Shown here: in pieces, positions 39,914 through 63,336 of the stretch | Layout: every line of letters begins with the position of its first letter | How positions within the stretch are numbered: position 1 is the first letter of the stretch | Origin: a virus | DNA: 64,000 nt | Reading direction: 5' to 3' (one strand) | IMG/VR virus record: IMGVR_UViG_3300027777_000001 | Location: 1 to 64,000 of that record | Notes under the pieces: generated by a model | Told to the model about the DNA's origin: nothing | Seen by the model: the letters and a program-made list of their open reading frames with translations, nothing else | Database searches by the model: none | Made by a program: the position numbers and the translations under genes

Positions 39914-39952
39914 CTGTGTGAATTGCGTGTGAATCCTGTGTGAATTCACACA
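39914..39952. repeat. Integrase arm-type repeats, left side of attP
   Basis: Three tandem 11-mers CTGTGTGAATT / GCGTGTGAATC / CTGTGTGAATT plus an inverted copy. Confidence 0.75.
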
Positions 39953-39979
39953 CCGCTTGGTACCGTTTAGTGGGGGTAG

Positions 39980-40019
39980 AAAAGAAAAACCGCTGTGCCT
40001 TCAAGGGGCTACAGCGGTT
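39980..40019 (-). terminator. Intrinsic terminator downstream of the tmRNA-like core
   Basis: Minus strand AACCGCTGT...ACAGCGGTT stem followed by TTTCTTTT. Confidence 0.75.
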
Positions 40020-40034
40020 AAAAGCGGTTTGTAA

Positions 40035-40060
40035 TGGTGGAGCCGGGGGGAATTGAACCC
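40035..40060 (-). other. attP core, a copy of the tmRNA (ssrA) 3' end
   Basis: Minus strand GGGTTCAATTCCCCCCGGCTCCACCA: T-arm, Ala-type acceptor strand and CCA; no 5' half present; lies 86 bp past the integrase stop. Confidence 0.8.
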
Positions 40061-40108
40061 TGCGGTGATTTACCTGTTTATGCGGGTCTCGAGCCAGTAA
40101 AACCTAAT

Positions 40109-40130
40109 CTGTGTGAATTCTGTGTGAATT
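40109..40130. repeat. Integrase arm-type repeats, right side of attP
   Basis: Two tandem CTGTGTGAATT copies. Confidence 0.75.
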
Positions 40131-40146
40131 CATTTTGAGAAGGGTT

Positions 40147-41364
40147 TTACGCCTCATTTCCATAGGCACTAGGCAAGGATTTCTGAAAGTTCTTGGGTAT
40201 CCATTTGCCATATCTCTTGAACACCATCTCGGCATCCACATGACCCATCTGCTGAGCCAACCAGAAAGGGTTAGCACCATTGGTCAGTAAAGTCGATGCG
40301 TAAGTATGCCTGATTTGGTAGAGGTTACGGTAGCGGATCTTAGAGCGTTCAAACAAAGGTTCCCAAAAGGTACGAACGATCTGCTGTTCTCGAGCCCATG
40401 GTTGACCGGATCGAGGGTTCATCCAGACTCTGCCATTGTCCTCATGCTCAAGCTCTTGTTGCTGAGCCAGTGCCTCAATCGCTGAGACATTCAGATCAAT
40501 CTCGCGGGCTCCTGAAGAGGTCTTAGGAGCTTTCTCAAACTGTCCCACCACATCCCCACGCCTGCCTGTGACCTCGTTGGTCGAGATCCTGACAAGCTTC
40601 TTATCCATGTCGATTGACTCCCAACGCAGAGCAATAAACTCTCCTGGTCGCAATCCTGTGGCAAACCAGAACTGAAGGGTAGAGCGTTCGTCTGACCGAC
40701 AAGCTTTAAGTAAAGCTGCAACCTCTTCATGGTCAAAGGGTTCAATGGCTCCACGTTTGGACTTGGTGCTGGTCTGGCTAAGTAGCTTCTTGAGTGCAAC
40801 ATTATCCAATGGATTGGATTCAATCAAGTCATCGTTCAGAGCATCCTCTAGTGCTGATCGAAGTGGGGTAAGCCTGTTCCTTACGGTCTTGGCAGTTACC
40901 CCAAGCCCAGCAATCCATGTTCTTAATACAGGTGCTGTCAGTTCGTTGATCGGTAGCTTGTCAAAAGCAGGGATCAAGATCGAGTTAATGATCTTGTAAT
41001 AGCCCTGATATGACGAAGGTGACAACGTATCGTTCTCAGTCTGCTTGTCATAGATCCCAAGCTGAGCCCTAAGTAAATCACCAATGGTTCGTTTGTGGAT
41101 AACCTTGACTACACCCTTAGTGACCTTGGGTGAGTCAGGGAAATACTTAGCGTATTCAAACGTACCATCAGCAATCTTTCGACGGATTTCACTTCTCAAA
41201 CTAGCTGCATAATCAATGTTTGTTTTATTGATCTTGCAGACTGGTAATAACTCACGACATTGCTGACTCTCGAAACTGAACGCAATCTGAATGCGTTGAA
41301 TCTCTCGGTCAGTCCTTATTGCTATGCCAACTGGCGTTTCAGGGGAACCTGACTCTCGACCCAT
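40147..41364 (-). CDS. int: Tyrosine integrase with N-terminal arm-binding domain
   Basis: TGLRPGE, APKT, YQIRHT, QMGH, KRYGKWI catalytic pattern; YAKYFP.S arm-domain motif. Confidence 0.93.
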   Translation of the reverse strand: MGRESGSPETPVGIAIRTDREIQRIQIAFSFESQQCRELLPVCKINKTNIDYAASLRSEIRRKIADGTFEYAKYFPDSPKVTKGVVKVIHKRTIGDLLRAQLGIYDKQTENDTLSPSSYQGYYKIINSILIPAFDKLPINELTAPVLRTWIAGLGVTAKTVRNRLTPLRSALEDALNDDLIESNPLDNVALKKLLSQTSTKSKRGAIEPFDHEEVAALLKACRSDERSTLQFWFATGLRPGEFIALRWESIDMDKKLVRISTNEVTGRRGDVVGQFEKAPKTSSGAREIDLNVSAIEALAQQQELEHEDNGRVWMNPRSGQPWAREQQIVRTFWEPLFERSKIRYRNLYQIRHTYASTLLTNGANPFWLAQQMGHVDAEMVFKRYGKWIPKNFQKSLPSAYGNEA

Positions 41365-41525
41365 TTCTCAACCTCGGTGGGATTAATCCAAATGCTACCT
41401 TCGCGTTTGACCCACTGTACTCCTTCTGTCCATTTACGGTTTCTACGCCTTGCTCGGACAGCCTCGGAGGTATCTCCTGAGAGATCACAATACTTATTGA
41501 TCTTGACCCATTTCATTGCAAGCAT
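41322..41525 (-). CDS. xis: Excisionase
   Basis: Small basic protein (KWV...YC..SG, W.EG..W, IWIN...VEKW) overlapping the int start. Confidence 0.8.
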   Translation of the reverse strand: MLAMKWVKINKYCDLSGDTSEAVRARRRNRKWTEGVQWVKREGSIWINPTEVEKWVESQVPLKRQLA

Positions 41526-41527
41526 GG

Positions 41528-41833
41528 TTATTTTCCTCGAGTGTTAGGGTTGGTACTTGAGTTAGGGTTCTGGTTTGAGTTGGTGTCAGGAGTCGTACTT
41601 GACCCTTTAGGTGCAGCAGGCTTGGCACCATCAGCAGGGGTAATGATTGAGATACCTTTGCCAGTGTTGTTGTAGATCATGCTGGAGGTATTGTCATCGT
41701 TGATGATGAGGGAGTTCTCACCCATGGGTAAGACCATCCCACTCTTGCCCGTACGTTCATCGAAGAAGAACTGGGCTTGAACCATTGATGATGCACCAAG
41801 GCTCAAAAGTATCATTAATAGAACACGTTTCAT
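41528..41833 (-). CDS. Secreted hypothetical protein
   Basis: Signal peptide ending VQA; N/S/T/P-rich tail. Confidence 0.55.
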   Translation of the reverse strand: MKRVLLMILLSLGASSMVQAQFFFDERTGKSGMVLPMGENSLIINDDNTSSMIYNNTGKGISIITPADGAKPAAPKGSSTTPDTNSNQNPNSSTNPNTRGK

Positions 41834-41839
41834 TTTTAA

Positions 41840-42085
41840 CTACCTTGAAAGATTAGACAGACGCACAGCTGCACGGTGAATCCGAGCATTGAACCAGCGT
41901 CTGATTGCGTATGATCTAGCGACTGAGATCACGGTGTAGATACCTCCCATCAATAGGTTGTCAGAAAGACTGATATGCATATTGAAGAGAGGGAAGATCA
42001 AAAGATTGGCCACATAATTAATACTGAAACCAATGGCTACGTTGATCCAAGCCTCGATAAAGCTTCCCGTCTTAGTCTGAGACAT
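41840..42085 (-). CDS. Conserved small membrane protein
   Basis: MSQTK..S.IEA..N, two TM segments, RSY.IRRWFN. Confidence 0.65.
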   Translation of the reverse strand: MSQTKTGSFIEAWINVAIGFSINYVANLLIFPLFNMHISLSDNLLMGGIYTVISVARSYAIRRWFNARIHRAAVRLSNLSR

Positions 42086-42476
42086 TGAATACTCCCTTAG
42101 GACGATCATCCCCTTCGGGATAGAACTTTTCATAATGAGCCAACATCATCACATTGCACATCATGTGTGCTGTGTGAGGTAAGCCAGACTCAGGATCTAA
42201 GTGCTCACCATTTTGCCAAGCAGTTAGATGACGTTGAAGTGAGTCGTACGGGACAGACCAATCTGCACCCTTAGCCCAGTTCCAAGCAGCGTACTTCTTG
42301 GCTCCGTATTCCCAGACCCGAGCTGTGTCCTCGAGCAGGCTCATGGGGATGAGATGAAACTTAGGCTTACCGAAGTTGTACCTAGCGCCTGATCCTTTGG
42401 CTGTGCTCGTTACGTCACCTATACCGGAACCGTGCTTCGCATTGATGTTCACAATGCCACCGTTAATGGTACTCAT
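42072..42476 (-). CDS. dATP/dGTP diphosphohydrolase-domain protein (DUF5664-like)
   Basis: GKP...LIP, YGAKKY..WNW.KG, RHL, DPESGLPH.AH. Confidence 0.8.
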   Translation of the reverse strand: MSTINGGIVNINAKHGSGIGDVTSTAKGSGARYNFGKPKFHLIPMSLLEDTARVWEYGAKKYAAWNWAKGADWSVPYDSLQRHLTAWQNGEHLDPESGLPHTAHMMCNVMMLAHYEKFYPEGDDRPKGVFNVSD

Positions 42477-42661: not shown

Positions 42662-42664
42662 GGT

Positions 42665-46373: not shown

Positions 46374-48989
46374 TCAGACCAACTTATGCTCCGCCTTAGC
46401 CGCATCACAGAGCTCTCGAATGCCATCTTCGCTTGCTCCGTTAGGTAAGGTGACAGCATGAGCCCAAGAGGGCCAGTACAGGTCTAACGCTGCGCCTAGC
46501 TTGACCGTGTCATGTAAGAGCTCGGGAAGCTCTTGCCATTGCATCGATTTAATCAATTCCGTATTCGCCCAATGCACAGTTTCGGCTACATCACGAACTA
46601 GGATGTAGATAGCATCATGTATCATGGCTGTCGGTTTGATATCCAGACGATATTTAGAAGCCCAGACCTTCTGCATGAAGTCCACAGCAGCACGGTTATT
46701 CAATAAGCCATAACTCTGACCCATTGCATTACCCGCTGTGCGTCCCTCGGCCTGTGCCTCAAAAGGAATGTGAGTACTACCAAAGATCACTTGTTTAAGA
46801 AGTGGGGTACGTACTCTTAATCCAAAAGCAACTTCTACAAATCCATCTTTACTGGCTTGTTCAAGACGGGCTTGAATAAAGTCATCACTGGCTTTGTATA
46901 ACGTGTGATACCCAGCTTCGATATCTTTGGCTTTGGCTTCAGAGAAACCAAGGCTATTAACCAAGGTTCTCCAAGTGCCTTGATAAGACAATGCAAAGGT
47001 AGCAGTCTTGGATTCTTGACGAAACTCAGGATAGAGTTTCTTCATAGAATTGATTGACGCTACCGTATCCACAATGTCAGGGCACAAGTCTTTGAAGTAC
47101 GAATACGCTCTTAGACAGTGACCATCGTAGCCATCGGTATAGACCTTTAGCTTGTTTGGATCCTTGGTGGTAAGCGCAGACACATAATCCTCGAGAGAAT
47201 TAAAGTCAGCCCCTGCAAGAATCCAACCAGGTGGAGCTTGGAAACATTCCTTTACAGACTTACCAAAGGTAGAGTTTGCAGGTAGATTTTGCATATTCGG
47301 GTCTGAGCTCGATAACCTACCAGACACAGTGCCACCAAGATTGAAGCTGCCATGTAGATACCGCATCCCATCGTCTTTAACCAAGCCTCTTTCAAAGGCA
47401 GGGATAAAGGTAGACAGGATCTTAGTGACTTTCCCGTAGCCAATGATGGCTTCAAGGAGAGTCTTATAAGAAGGTATCTGTGTATGGTTCAGTAGCTTCT
47501 CAATGGTGTCAGCACCCGTAGATGGTTGCTTAGTCTCAGTCAGATCAATCACAGGTAAACGCATTTGCTCGTACAGCAAGACCTGCAGCTGAGGGTTGCT
47601 GTTAGGGTTGAACGCCACATCACTGTACTTGGACAATGGATGTTGCTTGGTCTTCAACTTAGCGTTAGCAGCTTGCATCACACTGGTTTGATGGATTAGG
47701 TTGAAAGCCTTAATCAAACCATTGTTATCAAAGACCGCTAAGTGCTTAGCCTGTTCAGCCAGCAGATCAGCTTTGACATCGATGATCGCTTGCTCAGACA
47801 TAGGCATCCCTGTGAGCTCCATCTGAATAATGAGCTTCAGACTTGGTAGCATCAAAGACTTGTACAGTTCCTCTTGGTTATCAGCTTGCATGATTGGGTA
47901 ATACTTAGCCAACACATAGTTCGTAGACAACGCATCCACCAAGTTGTATTGCAAGAGCTCAGGTAAAGGGATACGGGTGATATCTTTGATATCTTCCTTA
48001 GCCCAATTCCCTGCATACCCATGCGCCAAGGATTTCAATCCAAGCACATTACCTGCAGTAGAGTTGGTTGCAAGATAAGCCACGATCTTCGTATCATTGA
48101 AGTGTCGGGTCATAATATCTAACCCAACCAGCAAGCCTTCCGTATCCAGAGGATTCTTCATCCAAAGGGTATAAATCAGAACCTTCAAATCGTAGGTTGC
48201 ATTGTGCCAAGTGATGGTGCCTTTGTATTCGGTAAAGAACTCCTTGAGTAATCGTTTAACAGAGGGATTGTTCCAATACTCTCCGAAGCCTTGCTCTGAT
48301 GCAGCACGGACTCCAAAGTTAATATAATCACAAGCAAAGGCTATGCCATTATGTTGATCCCAAGCAAAGGCAATGGTACCAATCCCAGCCTCGTTAAATC
48401 GAAGCGAGAAGGCCTCGATGTCACAGGACAGGGATTCGTATGAGTGCAGGTGTTGCAGAGCGCTGGAGATAGCTTGGAGGGTCTCAGGGTACTGTGCAGA
48501 GTGAATGATTCCATGGCCCAACGCGACATAGGAATTATCCATGGCTGAGGCCAAGGTCGACAGACTCAGATTTAGTTTCCCAATTAAGGCTGGGTTATAA
48601 ATCAGAGCCTGATGGTTCAATCCAAGCACGACCATGAAATGTTCGTAGCCCGGATATTTACAAGGTAAGACATAGCCAAAATGTGGCTCAGTCTTGCCAA
48701 GTTTTGTGAGGATCTTAAAGTACGTGGGTTCAGCCACATAGAGGATCTTCACACCTAACCCATCGAGGACAGGCAAGAGTTGTTCAAGATAGTCTCTGGC
48801 TAACTTGTTCGGAATCGTTTTAGTCTGACCCGTTTTAAGTGTGAAAGCGATGAGTCTATTTGACGCTATCTTGGCTGCATTCAATGGCTGCACATAATTA
48901 ACCAACAGTTCATGCTGATTAAAGTTTGTATCTTTGATGAGTAAAGCAGTCTGATAAGAGGGCGCACTATCAAAGATGAAATGTCGCAT
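46374..48989 (-). CDS. Family A DNA polymerase, N4 gp39-like
   Basis: Exo motifs DIE, HNATYD, YNLVD; TVSGRLSS; motifs A DFNSLE, B RQESKTATFALSY, C IHDA. Confidence 0.95.
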   Translation of the reverse strand: MRHFIFDSAPSYQTALLIKDTNFNQHELLVNYVQPLNAAKIASNRLIAFTLKTGQTKTIPNKLARDYLEQLLPVLDGLGVKILYVAEPTYFKILTKLGKTEPHFGYVLPCKYPGYEHFMVVLGLNHQALIYNPALIGKLNLSLSTLASAMDNSYVALGHGIIHSAQYPETLQAISSALQHLHSYESLSCDIEAFSLRFNEAGIGTIAFAWDQHNGIAFACDYINFGVRAASEQGFGEYWNNPSVKRLLKEFFTEYKGTITWHNATYDLKVLIYTLWMKNPLDTEGLLVGLDIMTRHFNDTKIVAYLATNSTAGNVLGLKSLAHGYAGNWAKEDIKDITRIPLPELLQYNLVDALSTNYVLAKYYPIMQADNQEELYKSLMLPSLKLIIQMELTGMPMSEQAIIDVKADLLAEQAKHLAVFDNNGLIKAFNLIHQTSVMQAANAKLKTKQHPLSKYSDVAFNPNSNPQLQVLLYEQMRLPVIDLTETKQPSTGADTIEKLLNHTQIPSYKTLLEAIIGYGKVTKILSTFIPAFERGLVKDDGMRYLHGSFNLGGTVSGRLSSSDPNMQNLPANSTFGKSVKECFQAPPGWILAGADFNSLEDYVSALTTKDPNKLKVYTDGYDGHCLRAYSYFKDLCPDIVDTVASINSMKKLYPEFRQESKTATFALSYQGTWRTLVNSLGFSEAKAKDIEAGYHTLYKASDDFIQARLEQASKDGFVEVAFGLRVRTPLLKQVIFGSTHIPFEAQAEGRTAGNAMGQSYGLLNNRAAVDFMQKVWASKYRLDIKPTAMIHDAIYILVRDVAETVHWANTELIKSMQWQELPELLHDTVKLGAALDLYWPSWAHAVTLPNGASEDGIRELCDAAKAEHKLV

Positions 48990-50765: not shown

Positions 50766-50768
50766 GGG

Positions 50769-51092
50769 TTACTCCGTAGTCACTAATTCTGGTTGAGGGT
50801 TCTCGATTTGTTCCAACGCATCAATGGTGACATTTAATAATGCAGCCATCTTGCGTTTGCGATAATCAGATCGAGAAATAATGGTGACTCGGACATCATC
50901 TTTAGTTAATGGTCTTACTGGGCTACCAGAACCATAATCATCAATTTTCTCGGCATTAGATAATGTATCTAGTAATGCTAAGCCTTCTTTATAAGGCAAA
51001 ATAACGGATAGTGAGTAACCAAAGTTAATTGATAAATAGCCACTAATTGGTTTATTCTCGTCAACTATTTTTAATGCCTGTGCATAATCCAT
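50769..51092 (-). CDS. Hypothetical protein
   Basis: 107-aa ORF in operon. Confidence 0.6.
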   Translation of the reverse strand: MDYAQALKIVDENKPISGYLSINFGYSLSVILPYKEGLALLDTLSNAEKIDDYGSGSPVRPLTKDDVRVTIISRSDYRKRKMAALLNVTIDALEQIENPQPELVTTE

Positions 51093-51097
51093 AATAA

Positions 51098-52201: not shown

Positions 52202-52218
52202 TATGTGCTCTTTATAAT

Positions 52219-52243
52219 AAAAAAAGAGAGCACTAGGCTCTCT
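52219..52243 (-). terminator. Intrinsic terminator
   Basis: AGAGAGC-actag-GCTCTCT with an adjacent A-run. Confidence 0.7.
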
Positions 52244-52288
52244 ACGGGATTATGTGCGGGGAGCGCACCTGATTAATATTAATAATAA

Positions 52289-52738
52289 CTAACCTGTGAT
52301 TAATCGTCTGGCTCTATATATTCTGCCATATTCGATTTGATTATCCCAAGAGGGTTCTGCAACACTTTCACTGAAGGTATTAATATAATAAATTAATCCA
52401 GCGTGATCATTCTTTAATTCTTCAAGAGTATTTAAACTTGGATAACGCTCATTTTGTAGAACCATTTTTCTAATGAGTTTACCTGTACTAGAGAACCTTA
52501 CATAATGATCTTCCCCATCCATGGATCTATCACTATCGGCAGATATATTAAATGGAATACCTAATTTACATATTCTTGTACAAAGGTCGGGTTCAAGACT
52601 TTCACTATCAGAACTAAAATAATATGTATTAATACCTTGCCATGCTTGCCAACTATCTTTTCTATCACCTAATCGACTTTTAATCATAGGAAAGATAATC
52701 GGGTGTAATACAGACAACGTAGATAATGTAGTATCCAT
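52289..52738 (-). CDS. Hypothetical protein (AT-rich)
   Basis: 149 aa, AAGGA RBS. Confidence 0.6.
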   Translation of the reverse strand: MDTTLSTLSVLHPIIFPMIKSRLGDRKDSWQAWQGINTYYFSSDSESLEPDLCTRICKLGIPFNISADSDRSMDGEDHYVRFSSTGKLIRKMVLQNERYPSLNTLEELKNDHAGLIYYINTFSESVAEPSWDNQIEYGRIYRARRLITG

Positions 52739-52804
52739 AACAATCCTTATTATTAATAATGGGGAATTAATAATCTATTATTAATATTATTAATCCCCAC
52801 TGTA

Positions 52805-53821
52805 TTAAGTAAATATGTCCACACTTGTTTTCTGAGACCATGTAATGATGGCGATGTGTCCAGCTAAAGCCACATTTCGTTTAATGGTTTCCCTCAGACA
52901 GACCACTTGAAACTCGGTAGGGAACCTATAGATGTAGCGCATCAAGGTGGTCAGGTTCTTATCCGTAGCGTTATGAGCCATGGAGCTACACATTGCCCAG
53001 ACAATTGAAGGCTCAGTTGGTACGGCAATCAGATCAGGGCTTGCCATGACTTCGATGATCGTAGGAATACTTGCGAACATCTTGCGATGGGACATGAATT
53101 CCCGTGCAGCACCCTCAGCAATGCAGCCTGAGATCAAGCGCAGCATATTGGGGTCATTGGGTACAGCAGTCTTTAAGACACGATCCACAAAGCCCCAAGT
53201 CCTTGGGCAAGCAAAGGTCTTGTCTGAGTGATCAGGATCAAAGTTATGCAGGATTCCGGGTTTGAACTTGATAAAGGAGGTAATACTTGGATCGATATGA
53301 TGGGTTGCTGCCCAATCCAACCATTCCAAGTGATTCCCTTCCAACTCAATGTGAACCAGCCTAGATTGCAAGGCTGTACTCATGGGTTCAACCAAGGCGT
53401 TGTCTGAATCCTTATTACCTGCACAGACGATGGCTACTTTGGAATGCAGACGCTTTTGCCCGACCATCTTATCCAAGACAATCTTGTAACTAGCTTTCTG
53501 TACGTTCTCGGTAGCCCCGTTGAACTCATCCAAGAAGAGCAGCCAACCTGAGTAACCCTCAGGAAGAGGATCACCTTCAAGAGGGAAGGTATCCATAGGC
53601 ACATAAGATGCACGATCTACGCCTAGCTTAGGAAAGCCATTGAGATCACTTGGATCACATTGGGAGAGCCTAAGATCGATGACCAGTAGGTTGAAATCAG
53701 CAGCGATCTGTTTGATCATGTCTGACTTACCCATCCCTGGGCTGCCTGTCATCATCGGCACCAAACCTGCTTTGATGTAGGTGACAAGCATTGATGATGC
53801 TTGGCTAATATAAGTTTCCAT
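52805..53821 (-). CDS. AAA+ ATPase (MoxR-like), N4 gp24-like
   Basis: GSPGMGKS, LFLDE, AGN, ALQSR, PRTW. Confidence 0.88.
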   Translation of the reverse strand: METYISQASSMLVTYIKAGLVPMMTGSPGMGKSDMIKQIAADFNLLVIDLRLSQCDPSDLNGFPKLGVDRASYVPMDTFPLEGDPLPEGYSGWLLFLDEFNGATENVQKASYKIVLDKMVGQKRLHSKVAIVCAGNKDSDNALVEPMSTALQSRLVHIELEGNHLEWLDWAATHHIDPSITSFIKFKPGILHNFDPDHSDKTFACPRTWGFVDRVLKTAVPNDPNMLRLISGCIAEGAAREFMSHRKMFASIPTIIEVMASPDLIAVPTEPSIVWAMCSSMAHNATDKNLTTLMRYIYRFPTEFQVVCLRETIKRNVALAGHIAIITWSQKTSVDIFT

Positions 53822-54891: not shown

Positions 54892-55057
54892 CTTGGACTC
54901 GAAGTAGGGTGTTGTGATAGGTGTACAGAATCGCTGCCATGTCATTGGGCTTGGCGATAGGAAGCATGGATTGAGCAAGGTCGATCACATCTTGCAACTT
55001 ATCGAGAGTCGGATAGACTCCCATGGCATGAGGGACTGGATTAGTGCTGTGTTTCAA
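54839..55057 (-). CDS. Small hypothetical protein
   Basis: TTG start after GGAG; YPT..LPI..TYHNTLL. Confidence 0.5.
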   Translation of the reverse strand: MKHSTNPVPHAMGVYPTLDKLQDVIDLAQSMLPIAKPNDMAAILYTYHNTLLRVQDENNHSPESDSLPTKGL

Positions 55058-55472
55058 GATGGATCTGCTCCGGTGTTGATTCAGCAGGCAAGCCTTCTTG
55101 AACACGTTGAGCTTTGATCTGCTCGATGATCTTGGCAATCCCACTGGAATAGAACAAGCCAGCCAATTGACCTGAGGTGCAACTGTTTAGATACTCTTGG
55201 ACATTTGCAGGGGTTAAGGCAGGCGTTGAGAGGGCTCTGGCAAGGCCTTCTGGCTCCAAGCTGTATTCATCCACGATAGCCATGAAAGACCGGATACGGT
55301 CTGTTATACGGTTCACAGGAGGTGGTGAGATTCCAGCCTCTACGAGCACACGGTTGACAGTCCGTTTAGAGGTCTTAAACTTTTCTGCGAGCTCGGTTTG
55401 GTTGAATATATCAGCCCGAAACCAGTCGGCAAGGAGTTGCTTTTCAGCAAGGGAAATACACTTTACGGTCAT
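55041..55472 (-). CDS. HTH DNA-binding protein
   Basis: NQTELAEKFKTSKRTVNRVL helix-turn-helix. Confidence 0.7.
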   Translation of the reverse strand: MTVKCISLAEKQLLADWFRADIFNQTELAEKFKTSKRTVNRVLVEAGISPPPVNRITDRIRSFMAIVDEYSLEPEGLARALSTPALTPANVQEYLNSCTSGQLAGLFYSSGIAKIIEQIKAQRVQEGLPAESTPEQIHLETQH

Positions 55473-55583
55473 TTTGAAATCCTAGTTAGGGTATCGGTCG
55501 CTTTAGTCAAAAATCAGATTTTTGAAAAGTTAGACTATGTATTGGGGCAAAATAGAAGTCTGCTAAAACTTCTATAAATGGAC

Positions 55584-55610
55584 AAAAAAAAAGAGACCCC
55601 GAAGGGTCTC
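55584..55610 (-). terminator. Intrinsic terminator after RNAP II genes
   Basis: Minus strand GAGACCC-TTCG-GGGTCTC then T9. Confidence 0.85.
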
Positions 55611-55663: not shown

Positions 55664-57738
55664 TTATGACAAGGCATAGTTCCCTAGCCTGATGTGTACG
55701 CCTAGGTCTTTACTCTTCTTCATCCACTTTCCCTTGTAGCCAGTGATCTGGGTAAGAACATCGGACAAGATCTCACTCTCGGCTAGATCAGCCATCACGT
55801 AGATGTACTGTTGACGAAGATGGTTCAGGTTATTAGGGTGACACTTGAACTCATCATGGATCGTCACTAGAGGGAAGGGTGCATACATCTGCATCTGGTC
55901 GATGAGAGTAGACAACTTCTCTAAGTGTGCTGTGGATAACTGATCCACAGTCTTGGTTGTTAGATGAGGCAGGATCACCACATCAGCTAACTTGCTACGG
56001 TTGAACTGCTCGATGTAATACATTGTTTTACCTGACAAGGCAGGTGAGCTGAAGTTTGGATACATTCTTCGGACATCTAATGTGTCCTTGATTAGAGCCT
56101 GAGCATTGCTGACAACTACTGGATCGTAGTTACAACGCCTGTGCATAGCCCGTAATACGTAACCATCGATGCTATGTATACAATTCGCCGCCAGTGATAA
56201 TCCCTTCTTAGTCCCTACATTGTCATAGTAGGTATAGGTGAAGGTGGCATGATCTAACTCATCAACCTCGATGCGTGCATCGATCTTGTCCATGACTTTG
56301 ACCTTGGCATCATACCCATCGGGTAATTGCCAAGCGTGCTCCAAAGCCCATGGTTGCCATGATGCAAGCAGGTCTTGGAGAAGCTCCCAAGGCCCGGGTG
56401 CCACGATCTGAGCTGCCTGATAGAAGGCATCCAGTTCAGGACTATCCTCGCCAAATATGGCTTTGGGAGTCTTTTTACTACCGTAGAAAGCAATGTGTTC
56501 AGGATAGTTCGTTAAGCTATCCCCGCTTTATTCAAGCTGCTATGTATTCCTACATAGATCAGACTATATCTTCACCCATCACTGGGGTTCTGCGCTTCCA
56601 CCCACTTGGGTGTACTCCCTTACGGGATAGTCGTTGCACCTTTTACAACAGCTTTACACATCTGGATAAATAGTTCTTCATCCAAATCGCCTTTTGCTCT
56701 ATTAACAGCCCATGCTACCCATTGAACATTACCCTGTGTGTACCCTAATTTAGGTTGCAGTTTGTCAATTGACAATCCAGCAGGGTGTTCTTTTTCAACG
56801 AATAGTGATTGGTTGGTGTATTTACACTTCCCATTTTGCTGTTTCCAGAGGTCAAGCATATATTCCATAGTGATATTAAATGGGCGTTCGTTTCGTTTGT
56901 TGTTGGTTTTTGCTGAAGATATCCTCTGGCAAATAGCAGAAACTAACTTACGTTCGTCCCCTTTATATGGTGCAAATCGGCCTGTGCCATCGTAGCCTTT
57001 ATGTTTAGCTCGCCATTCTCTAGCTTCTTTTGCTAGACACACACGACATTCTGGTTTGAAATCAGCAATGACGTTGGCGTTGAATTGTGAGCTGTTTTTA
57101 CTTTTGGCGGGGCCGTATGCATTTAAAGGTTTAATTTCATTACAGATCCGACAGGTTTTCATCGTATTCCTATAGGTAAAGTCATAGAAGTATTTTACGA
57201 TTATTTCTACGGAATAGCTATCATAACTTGGCTCAGGATTGTCCTTATTTTTCAATAGTGGGATGTTCCCTGAGTTCACAGAATTGCGTATTTCTAGTTG
57301 CCTAGAAAGTGACCCCTTTTATTCTAAGGTCATTAGACACTTCTTGGCATCTGCTCGAGGGATTGTGATGTTGCTCCCCAAGATGGCATTCATCGTATCT
57401 GTGGTCAGGGTGTATGCGTCTGCTCGGACATTGGGGTTCGTTAAGCCCGTAGACGCAGCACCCGCAGGGCATCCTGTGATAGCAGCCATGATCTGAATGC
57501 CTGAACATACAGCATCAAATCCAACCAAGTGTCCAGAGGGTTCCCCCCTCTGTGCTGCTCGGATAGCTTGGCAAGCCTTCATGTACAAAGGCTTCTTATC
57601 AGCCTGATCTACTAGGCTCTCTAAGATATCCAAGTTAGCCTCGGCCCATGTAATACGTTCCTCGAATAGAAGTTTGTCGATACCGAATTGGTTTGCGACA
57701 TCAATGAGTAAGTACTGCCAGCCTGTGAAGGTTTGCAT
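55664..57738 (-). CDS. RNA polymerase II large subunit (N4 gp16-like), two exons: 57738-57327 and 56490-55664
   Basis: Exon 1 has FDAVCSGIQ (motif A); the join gives RADAKKCLMTSFYGS (motif B); exon 2 has IHSIDG and IHDEF (motif C); 412+827 nt = 413 codons in frame. Confidence 0.9.
56491..57326 (-). mobile_element. Group I intron (836 nt) in the RNAP II gene
   Basis: P1 UGACCU/GGGUCA with U.G at the 5' splice site; P GAACUCAGGGAA, Q AAUCCUGAGCCAAG, R GCAACGACUA, S AAGAUAUAGUC; terminal G. Confidence 0.9.
56620..57162 (-). CDS. Intron-encoded homing endonuclease (HNH/His-Me-finger-like)
   Basis: CRIC..CRVC N-terminus; SIDK..P.LGY..GNVQW....N.AK; lies between Q and R elements. Confidence 0.8.
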   Translation of the reverse strand: MKTCRICNEIKPLNAYGPAKSKNSSQFNANVIADFKPECRVCLAKEAREWRAKHKGYDGTGRFAPYKGDERKLVSAICQRISSAKTNNKRNERPFNITMEYMLDLWKQQNGKCKYTNQSLFVEKEHPAGLSIDKLQPKLGYTQGNVQWVAWAVNRAKGDLDEELFIQMCKAVVKGATTIP

Positions 57739-57748
57739 GATTAGACCT

Positions 57749-57967
57749 TTATGGGAATAGAATTGCCATGGCACGGATGTGCTTGGGTATGTTGTCGTGA
57801 TTGGGTATCCACTGCCAATCGTATCCGCCGATACCTTTATCCATACAGAGGTACCAATTTTCTCCAAATTTCTTATATGTTCCTAAAATCCGTTCGGTAC
57901 CCCAATCATCCCCATTGGGGAAGACTAGAACCTCACCGTTGGGACTGAAGTGATACTTTGATTTCAT
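57749..57967 (-). CDS. Hypothetical protein between RNAP II subunit genes
   Basis: ATGA-coupled 72-aa ORF. Confidence 0.55.
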   Translation of the reverse strand: MKSKYHFSPNGEVLVFPNGDDWGTERILGTYKKFGENWYLCMDKGIGGYDWQWIPNHDNIPKHIRAMAILFP

Positions 57968-58872
57968 GTTGGAACTCCTGTAACAACCTCTTCATTGAAG
58001 AGCTCGATGCTTGCCTTCTTGAAGGGTGTGCCTTGGGTGTTGATGTGATAGCCGCAGGAATAGATACGGCCTCTCTTGTCAACCTTGTGGGTTAACCAGA
58101 ACTTATTACCTTGGTTCACTAAGAGACTGTAGAAGCCATAAGACTGAGTCTTAAAGTCTTGCCATAGACTGATCTGCTCTTGGTTCTTGGCTACGAACGT
58201 AGGCTCCTCTTCAACACTAGATAAGAACTCAGTGTTGATCTTTAGAGGAACTTGGTTCATTAGATTCAGAACATCTAAGCAGATGTCTCCACCATGGTGA
58301 TTACCTTGACCCAGTATCAATGAATCATTGTGGGTCAAGTAACCTGAGCTGTAGTTGCTAGTGAGCTCCAGTGGACTACACACCATGGGTGGTAAGTAGC
58401 TACTGTTACGCACAAAGTCTAGAGTCTGCTTGGTTAAGAAGATCCTAGACACCACTGTTAAGCTCGCTGTCCTACCTACCTTACCAATGTCAAAGGCATC
58501 GGTTAAGCATAGTATGGCTAAGATCTCAGCGACTGTTGTGACTGCTTGTACTCGGTCACTGAACTTCAATCGACTCGCCATCTGTGCTGCAACAGAAGAC
58601 AACATCTCTTCTTTCTGGAAGTAACAGATACCTACGAAGATGTCTGTCACCAAGGTCTCGAAGTCTAGCCCTTCAAGCTGGGCTATCCTTCTATTCTTGG
58701 ATTCATAGTAGGTACCTGCTGCATACTTCTCCAGAAGTTCTACACCTTCTTGTATCTTGGCTTGAGTATCAGGGTTGTCCCTGATGTCACCAGAGATATA
58801 ACCGTCAATGAACTTACGGCTATATCTTTCCTCATTGGCTTCTTGCATGAAGATCTGCTTCAAAGTATCCAT
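57964..58872 (-). CDS. RNA polymerase II small subunit (N4 gp15-like)
   Basis: PPMV..P, SGYLT, DKRGRIY (DxxGR) motifs. Confidence 0.9.
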   Translation of the reverse strand: MDTLKQIFMQEANEERYSRKFIDGYISGDIRDNPDTQAKIQEGVELLEKYAAGTYYESKNRRIAQLEGLDFETLVTDIFVGICYFQKEEMLSSVAAQMASRLKFSDRVQAVTTVAEILAILCLTDAFDIGKVGRTASLTVVSRIFLTKQTLDFVRNSSYLPPMVCSPLELTSNYSSGYLTHNDSLILGQGNHHGGDICLDVLNLMNQVPLKINTEFLSSVEEEPTFVAKNQEQISLWQDFKTQSYGFYSLLVNQGNKFWLTHKVDKRGRIYSCGYHINTQGTPFKKASIELFNEEVVTGVPT

Positions 58873-59292: not shown

Positions 59293-59311
59293 CCTATACA
59301 GAGGCGTAGCC
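59293..59311 (-). promoter_or_regulatory. Putative vRNAP hairpin promoter
   Basis: CCTATACAGA-GGC-GTA-GCC on the template (+) strand. Confidence 0.65.
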
Positions 59312-59336
59312 CCCCATGCATCACCCGCAGCGAGGG

Positions 59337-59369
59337 AAAAGAACCCAGCCCTCCCGAAGGAAGACTGGA
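59337..59369 (-). terminator. Intrinsic terminator
   Basis: UUCG hairpin plus U-rich tail on the minus strand. Confidence 0.7.
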
Positions 59370-59375
59370 TTAGGT

Positions 59376-59669
59376 TTACTTTGAGCCAAGACGATTTGAT
59401 TCTTTGAGTCGGTAATAATCGTTGGTGGCAATGACTAGCTCACGTTGCAAGCTATCGACCTCTGTATTAATTATCGTGAACATCTCTTCTATGCCCAGCT
59501 GTTTGATTCTCTCAAGGCCGTAACCTAAAGTGGTTAAGATACGATGCGTACCTGTCTCAACTCGGTCATTTACCTTCCCGCATAATTCATCTACTACTTC
59601 TAGCTGGGCTTTTAAATTTGCAATAACAGCTAATGCTGTTTTGTGGTCATCGATTGCGATGTTGTTCAT
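59376..59669 (-). CDS. Early hypothetical protein
   Basis: Start MNNIAI after ATCCAAAGGAATC leader. Confidence 0.6.
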   Translation of the reverse strand: MNNIAIDDHKTALAVIANLKAQLEVVDELCGKVNDRVETGTHRILTTLGYGLERIKQLGIEEMFTIINTEVDSLQRELVIATNDYYRLKESNRLGSK

Positions 59670-59721
59670 GTTGATTCCTTTGGATTGAGCCCAATCATCT
59701 CGAAAGATGACTGGATTAGGG

Positions 59722-59934
59722 TTAAGGCGTGATGTTTCCTGCAAGTTTGAGCTCTAGCACTTCAAGACGAATCTGGTTCGCTCGGTCTTTGATGTGTGCA
59801 ACACAAGCAGGGGTGAAATCGCAAACACCAATTACCATTTCATTCTCGATCCCGAGGATGTACTCGTTGATGTATCGAATGTGTAATTTCATTGCTGAGA
59901 GATGTTCGTTCATCTGTTCGGTACGTGCGCTCAT
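59722..59934 (-). CDS. Early hypothetical protein
   Basis: Same leader; 70 aa. Confidence 0.6.
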   Translation of the reverse strand: MSARTEQMNEHLSAMKLHIRYINEYILGIENEMVIGVCDFTPACVAHIKDRANQIRLEVLELKLAGNITP

Positions 59935-59955
59935 AATGATTCCTTTGGATGTGAG

Positions 59956-60285
59956 TTACCAAATACCTCTAGTTATTAGCTTTGCAAATTCATGGTTTTC
60001 TTTTTCTAATTCTTCAGCAGTGACATCGTTTGGTGCTTGGCGACGGTAGCTTGCGTACATAGCTGCACCATCTCGTTCTTGTTGCAAGTTATCGACTTGT
60101 TCAAGGATCAAGATGAGTTTGCCCAAGGTAGTCGAATGCTCTCTGGTTTCGGCTGTGAAGTTGAGTTTGATCATGATGCGATCAATAGCTTCTTCGGTAT
60201 AGTCTCGAACAAGTGCTTCTGCTCGGTCTATCTTGGCTTGAAGACTGGCGTTAATTCGAGCTTGTTGTTCTTCGGTCAGTTTCAT
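59956..60285 (-). CDS. Early hypothetical coiled-coil protein
   Basis: Same leader; 109 aa. Confidence 0.6.
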   Translation of the reverse strand: MKLTEEQQARINASLQAKIDRAEALVRDYTEEAIDRIMIKLNFTAETREHSTTLGKLILILEQVDNLQQERDGAAMYASYRRQAPNDVTAEELEKENHEFAKLITRGIW

Positions 60286-60318
60286 GATGGTTCCTTTGGA
60301 TTGTGTAATCGGGGATAT

Positions 60319-60349
60319 AAAAAAACCTACAACCCCGAAGGGAAGTAGG
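60319..60349 (-). terminator. Intrinsic terminator
   Basis: UUCG hairpin plus U7. Confidence 0.75.
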
Positions 60350-60367
60350 CTTATCAGTGCTGAGGCA

Positions 60368-60886
60368 TTAAGCCAGACTGAATTTAGGACGGGCTGCTTT
60401 CTCTCCGGGGCGATAATCCCAGGTGAGGTTTGTTAAGAACTCAACAATGTTCTTTGGATCAGCTTCGAGATAGTGCATCAGACCTGCGTGCTGAGTGTTA
60501 TCAGCCTTCAGTTCGATAAAGCCAAGCTTCGCTGTGCCGCCGCCCTCTGCTGGAAGGTGAAAGTTCAGATAACCCGAAGTGTTGGCTTCTGTAGCAACTG
60601 CTGGTACTGGAGAAATCATCTTGATCTGTGATTTCTGGTTGCGGCGGGGCGATTGGTAATCAACCGTCACCTTAGCTGCGAAGATAGCCAAATTAGCTGG
60701 GTTCGCTTCAAGGTATTCGCGCAACATCTTCTGGTTCTCAACAGCGTCTTTGAGACCGATAAAGCCTAACTTGTACAAACTATCTTCTTGTGCAGGAAGA
60801 TAGGAATTCAGAAAACCACTTGCTTTCCAGTCTTGGTCAGAAGATGACGATGAACGTGGAGCTTTGTTGGCATAGGGAGAAGCCAT
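60368..60886 (-). CDS. N4 gp2-like ssDNA-binding RNAP II activator with an internally duplicated domain
   Basis: WKASGFLN.YLP..KLG.I.LK recalled as gp2-family-like; motif present twice; early-region position. Confidence 0.6.
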   Translation of the reverse strand: MASPYANKAPRSSSSSDQDWKASGFLNSYLPAQEDSLYKLGFIGLKDAVENQKMLREYLEANPANLAIFAAKVTVDYQSPRRNQKSQIKMISPVPAVATEANTSGYLNFHLPAEGGGTAKLGFIELKADNTQHAGLMHYLEADPKNIVEFLTNLTWDYRPGEKAARPKFSLA

Positions 60887-60928
60887 GATGATTCCAATAT
60901 GAGAGATATGACAGGCACAGGATTTGTG

Positions 60929-60947
60929 CTGTAACAGAGGCGTAGCC
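60929..60947 (-). promoter_or_regulatory. Putative vRNAP hairpin promoter
   Basis: CTGTAACAGA-GGC-GTA-GCC. Confidence 0.7.
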
Positions 60948-61561
60948 TTGGTGGAGAACACGCAGACGTACCGAACCGAAGCAAGGCTCGTGGCTATGCG
61001 GGCAGGAAGGTACTTGTTTGGATTATGTATAACGAAGCTTAAGTGCGGCGATGAGATAGATAACGATGATTTTGAGTAAATCGTTTCTTTGTGAAAACTT
61101 CTAACATTCCTTGGATTAGGTAGAAGACAAAGGCCTTGTCATTCTTACCTTTACAGAGTGTACGGAGTACACCTCAGTGTATTAAGTAGTACTTAGTATT
61201 AAGTAGTATATTTTAAACATTACTGTTTGGTAATGAAATGTAATCCTTAACCTTAAATGATGTATGTAAGTCCTTAAAACCTTACGTGTATTACCGAACA
61301 TATGATTATTGAGTCTATCTATATCCATACCTTCGGCCCTCTTATATAAGAGAACTAAACCTATAGGTAAATAAGGAGTTATATATAACTACTTGTAGGT
61401 ATCTATATATGTATAGATAAGTAGTATTAAGTATGTATATAAGTCTTATAAGACTATATATAAGATCGCAGGGTAGGGTCAGGGGTTTGGAACCGATGTC
61501 TGCAGTCTAGCCGATGGATTATTCAAACTATCTAATAGCCTATTTATATTAGGGGTATTAG

Positions 61562-61589
61562 AAAAGAAAGACATACCCCGAAGGGTATG
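61562..61589 (-). terminator. Intrinsic terminator
   Basis: Minus strand CATACCC-TTCG-GGGTATG plus U-rich tail. Confidence 0.75.
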
Positions 61590-61594
61590 CATTG

Positions 61595-61759
61595 TTAGTA
61601 CGGTGTTTGGCTTGAGAGATACCAGGTGTAAAGATGGTGTTGGTGATCCTTTTCCAAGAACCTACTCTCCTCAGTATCTTTAGCAATTATTGCTTCCCAA
61701 CGAGCATCTTGTTGACGCTCATACTCATACTCATCGAAGTCTTCTTTAGTAGTGACCAT
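61595..61759 (-). CDS. Early small acidic protein (not in ORF track)
   Basis: Hand translation MVTTKEDFDEYEYERQQ..., 54 aa, AAGGA RBS. Confidence 0.6.
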   Translation of the reverse strand: MVTTKEDFDEYEYERQQDARWEAIIAKDTEESRFLEKDHQHHLYTWYLSSQTPY

Positions 61760-61761
61760 GG

Positions 61762-61923
61762 TTATTCCTTAATTGGTTTAGAAGGCCTTAAACGGAGGCA
61801 CAAGGCGATTGCAGCTCCAAGGGTAGTAAGTAGTCCAACCCAGTAAAAGAACTGTGAGAGGGCTACTGCAAGGGCTAGGATGAGCACTAGTGTCAGTGCT
61901 CCAAGAAGGAGATAGGATTTCAT
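61762..61923 (-). CDS. Early small membrane protein
   Basis: ATGA-coupled start MKSYLL; two TM segments. Confidence 0.55.
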   Translation of the reverse strand: MKSYLLLGALTLVLILALAVALSQFFYWVGLLTTLGAAIALCLRLRPSKPIKE

Positions 61924-62105
61924 AAGGAATCCATCCAAGCATTTGCTGTAACCCAAGCTGCAAGTTCTGCATCTTGCTTGGCAAGGACACTGAGGTAATA
62001 AGCCTCAGCCTCTGCTGCATCAGCATCTGTACGATGCCAGAAGTAATGCTCCTCTCTGGAGAGGTCTTCAGCTTTAACTGTGTCGATCTCTGTGATCTGG
62101 TTCAT
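61920..62105 (-). CDS. Early hypothetical protein
   Basis: 61 aa, GAGGA RBS. Confidence 0.6.
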   Translation of the reverse strand: MNQITEIDTVKAEDLSREEHYFWHRTDADAAEAEAYYLSVLAKQDAELAAWVTANAWMDSL

Positions 62106-62108
62106 GGC

Positions 62109-62267
62109 TTAATCCTCAAGCATAGCTGTTGAGAACATGAGAGAAGTCTCACGCTCTTGACCCGATACTTCTAATTCGTAGAGATAGTTCTCGAGACTGA
62201 CGAGATCCGCACGGTCTTCAAACTCACCAGACCAGGCTTCTTGTTCGTGGTTGTATTGGCTAGTCAT
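62109..62267 (-). CDS. Early small acidic protein
   Basis: Start MTSQY after GGAG. Confidence 0.6.
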   Translation of the reverse strand: MTSQYNHEQEAWSGEFEDRADLVSLENYLYELEVSGQERETSLMFSTAMLED

Positions 62268-62298
62268 GGTGCTACTCCAGAGAAGTAGACAAAATTGT

Positions 62299-62317
62299 CT
62301 ATGACATACGCGTAGCG
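62299..62317 (-). promoter_or_regulatory. Putative vRNAP hairpin promoter (compensatory stem variant)
   Basis: CTATGACATA-CGC-GTA-GCG. Confidence 0.65.
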
Positions 62318-62328
62318 AACAGCAAGGG

Positions 62329-62482
62329 AAAAAAAACACCCAACCATCCCGAAGGATGATTGAGTGTTAGATGTCTGCTATCCCTAGCACATGAGTTGGA
62401 TAAGCCTCATGCTCGCTGTCTGCCATGCTACCGGGCAGACTCAGTTGGAATAGACGCAAATACTTCTTTCTTTTGCTATTCC
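62329..62482 (-). ncRNA. Candidate structured small RNA (about 155 nt) ending in a terminator at 62329-62368
   Basis: Own promoter motif and terminator, four stem-loops, no ORF with an RBS. Confidence 0.5.
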
Positions 62483-62499
62483 GTTACAGAGGCGTAGCC
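62481..62499 (-). promoter_or_regulatory. Putative vRNAP hairpin promoter
   Basis: CCGTTACAGA-GGC-GTA-GCC(TCT), 6-bp stem. Confidence 0.7.
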
Positions 62500-62523
62500 T
62501 CTTGGATATGTACAGGTGCATAT

Positions 62524-62554
62524 AAAAAAAGGGGATAACCCATAAGGGTTATCC
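62524..62554 (-). terminator. Intrinsic terminator
   Basis: GGATAACCC/GGGTTATCC stem plus U7. Confidence 0.8.
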
Positions 62555-62563
62555 ACTCTTGTG

Positions 62564-62758
62564 TTACCAATTCTTCATACGTTCTTCAAGACGAGCTAAA
62601 CGAAGCTCAAACTCTTTAGCGTAATGAGCCTCAGCTTCAGCACGACAAGCCTTTGTGTACTGACGATCTTTAATAAACTTAGGCATACTTACCTTAGGCA
62701 AGTTAAACTTAGGTAAAGTAATAGACTTAAACGACATCGTAGGGATAGTGATATTCAT
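62564..62758 (-). CDS. Early small basic protein, paralogue of 63061-63279
   Basis: Start MNITIP after GGAG; x-L/M-P-K repeats. Confidence 0.65.
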   Translation of the reverse strand: MNITIPTMSFKSITLPKFNLPKVSMPKFIKDRQYTKACRAEAEAHYAKEFELRLARLEERMKNW

Positions 62759-62800
62759 GTGATGCTCCGAAAGGGGAAAGAGATGTCGGGACGACATCTT

Positions 62801-62819
62801 CTATAACTGAGGCGTAGCC
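62801..62819 (-). promoter_or_regulatory. Putative vRNAP hairpin promoter
   Basis: CTATAACTGA-GGC-GTA-GCC. Confidence 0.7.
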
Positions 62820-62830
62820 AATAGCTTAGG

Positions 62831-62870
62831 AAAAAATACACACACCATCCCCTAAGAGGGATGATGTGTT
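62831..62870 (-). terminator. Intrinsic terminator
   Basis: CATCCC..GGGATG stem with extension plus U6. Confidence 0.7.
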
Positions 62871-62973
62871 TACATCTATGGTGTTGCTGGGTTGGTTTGA
62901 GAAACCGTATACATATCTGCCATATCTCATGCACAAAACAGATAAGTGAAGAGCCTCGTAATGCATTTGCTTT

Positions 62974-62992
62974 CCATTACATAGGCGTAGCC
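62974..62992 (-). promoter_or_regulatory. Putative vRNAP hairpin promoter
   Basis: CCATTACATA-GGC-GTA-GCC(TAT), 6-bp stem. Confidence 0.7.
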
Positions 62993-63013
62993 TATTAGAT
63001 GTATACGGGTATT

Positions 63014-63058
63014 AAAAAAGAAACCAACACACACCCAGTTAGGATATGTGCTGGTATC
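63014..63058 (-). terminator. Intrinsic terminator
   Basis: Long imperfect G.U-containing stem plus U6 on the minus strand, right after the ORF stop. Confidence 0.6.
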
Positions 63059-63060
63059 GA

Positions 63061-63279
63061 TTAACGAGATAACATTGACTTCAGTTCTTTGACTCGAGCT
63101 TGAGCTGATGGAGTAGACATGAACTCTTTGTACATAGACTCAGTAGTAGGAGTAACAACAGTAGCCTTAACAGTGCGAGCCTTAGTGGTACGAGTGAAGC
63201 AGCTAGGCATAGCAAGCTTAGGCAGTGTGATGTTGAATGACTTCAACGAGACTGATACAACTGGGAGTGTGATCTTCAT
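63061..63279 (-). CDS. First early gene, small basic protein
   Basis: Start MKITLP after GGAG. Confidence 0.65.
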   Translation of the reverse strand: MKITLPVVSVSLKSFNITLPKLAMPSCFTRTTKARTVKATVVTPTTESMYKEFMSTPSAQARVKELKSMLSR

Positions 63280-63317
63280 GGTGTATTGCTCCAATGATTA
63301 AGTAGATGAACATTCAT

Positions 63318-63336
63318 CCATCACATTGGCGTAGCC
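63318..63336 (-). promoter_or_regulatory. Putative vRNAP hairpin promoter
   Basis: CCATCACATT-GGC-GTA-GCC. Confidence 0.7.

Follow-up and report, generated by a model that had tools for sequence, protein, structure and literature searches.

We analysed a stretch of viral DNA of 64,000 nucleotides (hereafter the window), which comprises bases 1-64000 of a 74,079-bp IMG/VR virus record (IMGVR_UViG_3300027777_000001) and comes from an N4-like phage that carries an integrase, an excisionase and a phage attachment site (attP). To our knowledge, a dedicated repressor is the basis of dormancy in nearly all understood temperate phages. N4-type phages begin infection with an injected polymerase that host cells lack. 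An earlier note on this DNA had proposed that lysogeny is maintained here without any repressor, through dependence on this virion RNA polymerase (vRNAP), and it is this proposal that is considered below.

The ends of the IMG/VR record overlap by 99 bp, and an independent Logan assembly gave a 74,010-bp contig with a 30-nt overlap; both assemblies yield a circle of 73,980 bp. We regard the genome as that of a complete, circularly assembled N4-like (Schitoviridae-type) phage. The nearest cultured phages (Pylas, phCDa, LUZ7 and others) share about 46-54% identity with it in the polymerase proteins and are all lytic N4-likes. The terminase, portal and capsid genes are of N4 type and are located at genome coordinates 65072-73052, outside the window, as the earlier note had said.

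Integration module and attachment site

A tyrosine integrase gene with an arm-binding N-terminal domain was found at positions 40147-41364 on the minus strand (Arm-DNA-bind_2, PF12167, 5e-20; Phage_integrase, PF00589, 1.5e-17). Its start is overlapped by 43 nt by an excisionase gene (41322-41525, minus strand), which was identified by matches to PHROG excisionase families (2e-9 to 1e-7) and, weakly, to Pfam DUF1233. The attP core of 30 nt (40031-40060) reads GGGTTCAATTCCCCCCGGCTCCACCATTAC on the minus strand, equal to the 3' end of the host transfer-messenger RNA (tmRNA) gene, ssrA, plus 5 nt. On the same strand it is flanked by four GTGTGAAT arm-type repeats, one of them inverted, in the P' arm (39916-39951) and by two in the P arm (40111-40129). 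Six of the seven GTGTGAAT words of the window thus fall within 214 bp (39916-40129) around the core, and from this arrangement we identify them as arm-type sites for the arm-binding domain of the integrase. Directly after the core an inverted repeat (39988-40019, minus strand) forms a hairpin that would replace the ssrA terminator, ending transcription of the rebuilt ssrA. The Pfam and PHROG matches, the ssrA-end core and the flanking arm repeats bear out the int, xis and attP that had been reported for this region.

The host side of the site was examined in the family of an Alcaligenaceae metagenome-assembled genome (MAG), here taken as the host family, of which 61 genomes were scanned for the 25-nt ssrA-end part of the core. 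With at most one mismatch it was present in 43 of them, usually once. In the host-family genomes run through ARAGORN this part of the core falls at the 3' end of a tmRNA gene with the tag ANDERFALAA. In Logan unitigs from four freshwater or lake runs the assembly graph forks precisely at the two ends of the core, 40031 and 40060, where paths lead off to host ssrA and to the terminator downstream of it, so a host with an identical 30-nt bacterial attachment site (attB) co-occurs with the phage. The forks were rejected as evidence on the frequency of integration, as attB plus attP cannot be separated in them from attL plus attR. The host is likely a freshwater Alcaligenaceae-type bacterium with an ssrA tag of the ANDERFALAA type.

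Directly upstream of xis lies a gene for a 101-amino-acid (aa) protein (41528-41833, minus strand) with a clear N-terminal signal peptide and a low-complexity tail, for which no Pfam or PHROG family was matched. It is a candidate for an accessory gene expressed in the lysogen, in lysogenic conversion or exclusion.

Integration within the lineage

JGI metagenome contigs were scanned for the predicted attL junction. One contig (L037) contains 56 nt of the ssrA 3' domain, the core and the P' arm with three AATTCACACC repeats, followed by homologues of two lysis genes of the phage, the open reading frame (ORF) 39627-39908 (87% aa identity) and the endolysin 39005-39622 (93%). Its DNA is 90% identical to the window from 40060 to 39141. 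As host ssrA is linked in L037 to lysis genes from a relative with 90% identity, we conclude that the phage lineage integrates. A chimeric assembly is unlikely, because the core is only 30 nt long, although a contig of 1.1 kb leaves some chance of one. The attL junction was not found among viral contigs, and the attR junction predicted for this phage was found in neither the metagenome nor the viral contigs.

A contig of the Alcaligenaceae MAG (L008) carries the last 73 residues of an integrase that is identical in protein and 85% identical in nucleotides, together with a P arm and the core. The core is followed by a host terminator that matches exactly the one in the samples from which the phage came, and beyond it lie ordinary bacterial genes. 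The junction is the attR of a sister element. An integrated copy of the phage itself in this MAG was rejected, as the contig starts inside int and has only the final 345 nt of a sister integrase and the core, and no portal was found. A second, degenerate core with a P'-arm-like stretch is found 4.5 kb past this attR (L008:4850-4974), after a PhzF/ABM/cupin/DJ-1 island and adjoining a 101-aa Peptidase_S24 ORF. A 103-kb contig (L036) holds tmRNA, core and a P' arm (92% identical) at 5126-5275; it was rejected as an N4-like integration, as the DNA after the P' arm has no N4-like similarity. Judged by these loci, ssrA looks like an integration hotspot used by several related integrases.

The same int, xis and attP adjoin N4-like genes in two IMG/VR fragments, L011 (integrase 95% identical) and L012 (58%), and the attP core is 89% conserved in them while the identity of the integrase drops to 58%. 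With the gp15-like protein as query, 19 related loci were found in IMG/VR, and a tyrosine integrase was present in all eight near-complete genomes (G000 and G402-G408). These integrases are not all homologous, that of G402 (L033:11891-13120) being of the Arm-DNA-bind_3, P4-type. In the same genome a reverse transcriptase (RVT_1, L033:14805-15764, minus strand) lies between a 1212-aa putative tail-fibre gene and the P4-type int. G404 and G406 are flagged as proviruses, a status that rests on the IMG/VR label and on a gene order equal to that obtained here when the circle is cut at the border of int and the tail-fibre/lysis block. No att-type direct repeat was found at the ends of the G404 record, which terminates inside int. 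Near both ends G404 has two copies of a hairpin-forming element (303-402 and 69330-69511; arms GCACCTACACAGAAGCGGC and CCCGCTTCTGTGTGGGT).

No N4-like portal was detected in the species representatives searched for the host family and order (401 + 401 genomes), with a query that detects five of five phage relatives. Lysogens are therefore uncommon among the sequenced representatives.

N4-type transcription cascade

In N4, early transcription needs the injected vRNAP, and middle transcription needs RNAPII, which is made early. Late transcription, including that of the vRNAP gene, needs host RNA polymerase together with the middle-made N4SSB, which activates it. The parts of this cascade are present here. 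The vRNAP gene (4960-16995, plus strand; 4011 aa) was identified with phmmer against the solved N4 gp50 (4e-41), and sits in a block equivalent to the N4 late genes, in line with its description as a late gene in the earlier note. By comparison with N4, homologues of gp42-46 were located at 17-23 kb, among them N4SSB (gp45) at 18483-19235 on the minus strand. The homologues of gp15/gp16, gp24, gp25, gp37 and gp39 are all on the minus strand, running from 58.9 to 46.4 kb. They comprise the RNAPII small subunit (gp15-like, 57964-58872), the RNAPII large subunit (gp16-like, 55664-57867, split), the middle replication genes for an AAA ATPase (gp24), a gp25-like protein and a Dda-like helicase (gp37) at 49524-53821, and a DNA polymerase (gp39-like, 46374-48989). 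The RNAPII assignments are supported by phrog_2166 (8e-97), phrog_2051 (2.5e-70), Pfam RNA_pol and BLAST matches to N4 gp15 and gp16. The comparison with N4 proteins detected no gp1 or gp2 homologue in this genome. A strong terminator (55593-55610, minus strand) follows the RNAPII genes and ends the early unit.

The early region carries seven sites of the N4 hairpin-promoter type, all on the minus strand. The window contains six exact GGCGTAGCC words, which share one orientation and are all confined to 59303-63336; with up to one mismatch allowed, 6.2 matches are expected by chance over the whole window. These six are at 63328-63336, 62984-62992 (stem ATAGGC/GCCTAT), 62811-62819, 62491-62499 (stem AGAGGC/GCCTCT), 60939-60947 and 59303-59311, the last with a 6-bp stem and placed ahead of a SLOG-domain gene and the RNAPII genes. 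A variant with the stem CGC/GCG (62309-62317) makes the seventh. The stems of 3-6 bp covary (extensions AGAGGC/GCCTCT, ATAGGC/GCCTAT and TGGC/GCCA) around a 3-nt loop, so that the transcribed side reads stem-TAC-stem and the template strand has a GTA loop with a closing C-G pair (C-GTA-G). Most sites have a terminator before them and a small minus-strand ORF after them. The sites are of the established N4 early-promoter type and we infer that they act as promoters, in keeping with the hairpin promoters that had been noted ahead of the early cassettes; they were found in the early region only.

The order from gp39 to gp42 is conserved in N4 and is broken here by about 23 kb of inserted DNA. The insert contains accessory ORFs, the xis-int-attP module, a tail-fibre/lysis block of 12.6 kb on the opposite strand (27309-39908, with the endolysin at 39005-39622), and genes for ThyX and a class I ribonucleotide reductase (RNR). 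The gp39/gp42 junction is also occupied in G402, G404 and G406, by different integrases.

Some further features of these regions were recorded. The RNAPII large-subunit gene is split into an N part (57319-57867) and a C part (55664-56404), between which lies an HNH endonuclease ORF (56620-57279). The Rfam model Intron_gpI scores 33.5 bits at 56540-56763 (E 1.6e-6 in a small search), short of its gathering score of 50, and phages unrelated to this one have HNH or intron segments with 80-92% identity to 56494-56642. These matches support 56491-57326 (minus strand) as a candidate group I intron with a homing endonuclease. An early-region protein (60368-60961, minus strand) matches the PHROG 'toxin' family phrog_6271 over residues 120-168 (9e-10), and nearly all relatives encode a homologue at this early position. 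Genes with the annotation 'toxin' lie immediately upstream of RNAPII in the lytic phages LUZ7 and CB1. Outside the window, a lone 78-aa reverse-strand gene stands among the late structural genes (genome 67499-67735, minus strand; L002:7499-7735) and matches Pfam crAss001_48 (4e-17). The DNA upstream of it is AT-rich and contains a sigma-70-like site (TTCATA-18-TATAAT); the gene has a terminator of its own and is absent from G402, G404 and G406. It is thus organised as a moron-like unit, which could be expressed by host RNA polymerase in the lysogen.

Search for a repressor

About 90 ORFs of the whole 74-kb genome were scanned with Pfam and/or PHROG, and none of them belonged to the HTH_3, Cro, CI, Peptidase_S24, antirepressor or Bro families. 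Six-frame searches of G000, G402, G404, G405 and G406 gave no HTH_3 match above the cut-off and no Peptidase_S24. The statement that no CI/Cro-type repressor pair is visible, first made for the window, therefore holds across the genome and the clade. Two divergent junctions were considered as places for a CI-like gene and rejected, 27191/27309 being flanked by ThyX and a tail fibre and 63494/63622 by an early ORF and an N4-conserved phrog_2109 protein. LexA-box control was rejected as well, as the two exact CTGT-N8-ACAG sites both lie within ORFs and their number is about that expected by chance. An ORF in the tail-fibre/lysis block (36017-36379; DUF5856, phrog_858 'starvation-inducible transcriptional regulator') was not treated as a repressor.

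Strong sigma-70-like sites were rarer than in shuffled sequence, both genome-wide (12 vs about 21) and at 39.5-46.5 kb (3 vs 10.7). The best site of this region, TTGACA-16-AATTAT with a transcription start site near 44204, is directed down the accessory block towards xis and int.

A clade-specific helix-turn-helix protein beside the RNAPII genes

The earlier note had named a helix-turn-helix (HTH) protein at 55041-55472 (minus strand) as a possible repressor. The family proved real: eight of its 12 members match Pfam HTH_11 (best 1.5e-7) and three of 12 match Sigma70_r4 (8e-6), and in the protein of this genome three N-terminal helices were predicted at a pLDDT of 84-90. MarR was matched by three of the 12 members only, at 0.026. 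Members of the family start with MTVKC...ELA...RTVNRVL, the recognition helix having the form RT[IV][NQ]RVL. Foldseek/PDB and PDB sequence searches were rejected as a source of identity, giving generic HTH matches only (E >= 0.15), and an Atlas search gave leads below 0.9 only.

Here the gene is the first after the early-unit terminator, beside the RNAPII genes and 14 kb from int. It directly follows the RNAPII large-subunit gene in ten relatives, among which are the divergent G402, G404 and G406, and contigs of 58-74 kb carry close homologues of the protein. With tblastn no homologue was found in 50,697 cultured phage records, and the family profile matched nothing at the syntenic position in LUZ7 and CB1, nor in the 36 kb of N4 that were searched. 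On the basis of the family profile and synteny, we consider it a clade-specific DNA-binding protein and a candidate non-canonical regulator of lysogeny or of the middle genes.

Two copies of an ATAnnCTAAC motif (ACCGATACCCTAAC and CATAGTCTAAC) lie upstream of the gene at 55484-55547 (minus strand), and four relatives share this motif. A ACCGATAnnCTAA-type element was found upstream of the HTH gene where a terminator precedes the gene (G000, L041, G402, G406 and L050). It is unique in this genome, while G402 (29938 and 36225) and G406 (52201 and 56569) carry a second copy in the early region; in G404 it is at 55320. The element could be a dedicated promoter or operator.

Discussion

Taken together, the integration module, the L037 junction and the N4-type gene set identify a genuinely temperate N4-like phage. 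Judging from N4 biology, none of the three polymerase steps could be started from the prophage. The cascade would be off by default there, because each step needs a phage protein from the previous step and the first one is delivered by the virion. Once any step leaks, the cascade would turn into a positive-feedback loop. Our preferred explanation, to which we give a little under an even chance, is that this default-off cascade is combined with a non-canonical phage regulator, most likely the HTH protein at 55041-55472. The protein would supplement the default-off wiring and would set or lock the decision between lysis and lysogeny. Its target would be middle transcription, which depends on RNAPII, or the conserved element upstream of its own gene, in analogy to the MarR-type regulator proposed for the phage RNA polymerase of temperate T7-like phages (PMC10134795). 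int and xis are at the far end of the middle operon. We favour a regulator in addition to the wiring because the wiring by itself leaves unexplained how an infection that already makes RNAPII is halted before lysis. The premises of the earlier proposal thus stood, namely integration, hairpin promoters, the parts of the cascade and the lack of a lambda-type switch. Its conclusion that no repressor is needed was not established, the clade-specific HTH protein beside RNAPII being a plausible non-canonical regulator.

Several observations weigh against this role of the HTH protein. The gene is co-oriented with the lytic genes, and no sigma-70-like promoter was found upstream of it in any of 10 relatives, so that nothing indicates its production in a lysogen. 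Half of the relatives lack the upstream motif and have other ORFs directly ahead of the gene. The integrase-bearing G408 shows no HTH homologue near RNAPII. As every near-complete member of the clade has an integrase, a link between the HTH protein and the integrase is inseparable from shared ancestry, and the fold and PDB searches gave generic HTH matches only. The protein could just as well be a transcription factor for middle or late genes, or serve RNAPII as a cofactor.

If it is a factor of the lytic cycle only, dormancy may come about with no repressor at all, a reading that we consider rather unlikely. The prophage would then be silent solely through the absence of vRNAP. The loop from vRNAP to early genes and RNAPII, from these to middle genes and N4SSB and on to late genes and vRNAP would sustain itself once started and have a stable OFF state, and induction would follow a stochastic leak or the delivery of vRNAP by a superinfecting relative. 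Such strict dependence on vRNAP, doubtful as we hold it, agrees with the lack of CI, Cro, S24 and antirepressor genes in the ORF and six-frame searches, with early promoters solely of the vRNAP hairpin type, with the under-representation of strong sigma-70-like sites and with an HTH gene that has no host-type promoter; integrase-bearing T7-like cyanophages also lack repressor homologues (PMC8776855). Against it stand the clade-specific HTH protein and the conserved element upstream of its gene. No function is known for about half of the small ORFs, which leaves room for an unrecognised repressor, and the halt of an infection that is already making RNAPII and replication proteins, before the late genes and lysis, is not accounted for. 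Such an unrecognised regulator might also be something other than the HTH protein, either a small ORFan in the early region or in the accessory block at 41.5-46.3 kb, or an early small RNA. Many ORFs at 41.5-46.3 kb and 59.4-63.5 kb lack a Pfam or PHROG function, and the best sigma-70-like site is directed down the accessory block. None of the candidate ORFs is conserved in the divergent integrase-bearing G402, G404 and G406, however, and the family search found no HTH in them, and we regard this explanation as improbable.

It is also conceivable, and in our analysis the most improbable of the explanations considered, that integration occurs without stable lysogeny, as a transient event in an essentially lytic cycle that has no maintenance mechanism. 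The T7-like cyanophages without stable lysogens or repressor homologues offer a precedent (PMC8776855), and both the lack of an N4-like portal in the 401 + 401 host family and order genomes (positive control five of five relatives) and the absence of the predicted attR junction from the metagenome and viral contigs scanned would fit it. An integrated form was, however, abundant enough to be assembled in L037, two relatives are flagged proviruses, and the excisionase has been maintained. In addition, int and attP are kept across the clade, with a conserved core while integrase identity falls to 58%, and 40 integrated N4-like proviruses have been found in bacterial genome contigs (Zheng et al. 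2023, PMC10654107).

Integrase-bearing N4-like genomes and integrated N4-like proviruses were already known, having been published in 2023 (PMC10654107). In our literature search no paper was found that proposes or tests dependence on vRNAP as the basis of dormancy. New here are the map of attP and attB at ssrA with the attL contig, the clade-wide occurrence of integrases, the clade-wide absence of CI and S24 genes, and the clade-specific HTH gene beside RNAPII. A temperate N4-like member raises the clean question whether dormancy requires a repressor in the first place, and by what route the cascade starts again. For experiments this genome offers the mapped attP and attB sites in ssrA, a defined group of hairpin promoters, a likely host family, and one candidate regulator whose upstream element is conserved. 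The case is relevant to phage therapy screening as well, since the usual assumption there is that an N4-like phage is strictly lytic.

Comparison with known systems

The phage resembles N4 in its giant vRNAP, in its homologues of gp15/gp16, gp24, gp25, gp37, gp39 and gp42-46, and in its template-strand C-GNA-G triloop hairpins, which are confined to the early region. It differs from the lytic N4 in having int, xis and attP, the tail-fibre/lysis block and the ThyX and RNR genes between the gp39 and gp42 homologues, and the HTH gene after RNAPII has no N4 counterpart in the profile search of 36 kb of N4. The integration module is of lambda type, with an arm-binding integrase, an overlapping xis and arm-type sites in attP here as in lambda. 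The CI/Cro switch is where it departs from lambda, as no HTH_3 repressor, S24 autocleavage domain or divergent repressor/cro pair was found.

Zheng et al. (2023, mSystems; PMC10654107) described integrase-bearing N4-like uncultivated viral genomes (UViGs) from IMG/VR, with integrases in whole subfamilies, together with the 40 integrated proviruses mentioned above. Their paper does not discuss repressors (the word 'repressor' occurs 0 times), att sites or early promoters. The present phage shares with these genomes an N4-like backbone and a tyrosine integrase, and G402, with an int and a reverse transcriptase of the diversity-generating retroelement (DGR) kind, fits their subfamily SF8. What sets the present case apart is the attP mapped to ssrA, the attL junction and the clade-specific HTH protein beside RNAPII.

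Shitrit et al. (2021, PMC8776855) showed that T7-like cyanophages integrate, but found neither stable lysogens nor homologues of repressors. These phages share with this phage an integrase and attP, the lack of a repressor homologue and a lytic-type genome; the difference is that this phage keeps an excisionase and that its relatives were assembled as integrated forms or proviruses. In the temperate T7-like phage LUZ100 (Putzeys et al. 2023, PMC10134795) a MarR-like regulator beside the RNA polymerase gene is co-transcribed with int from a host promoter and was proposed to gate the phage RNA polymerase. The HTH protein described here is instead HTH_11/sigma-70 region 4-like and is encoded 14 kb from int with no recognisable host promoter, and the first polymerase is injected, whereas that of LUZ100 is made from a host promoter. 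Both are podoviruses of 'lytic' families that depend on their own RNA polymerase for expression, and both combine an integrase with a non-CI HTH regulator, in our case a candidate one, beside the RNA polymerase gene.

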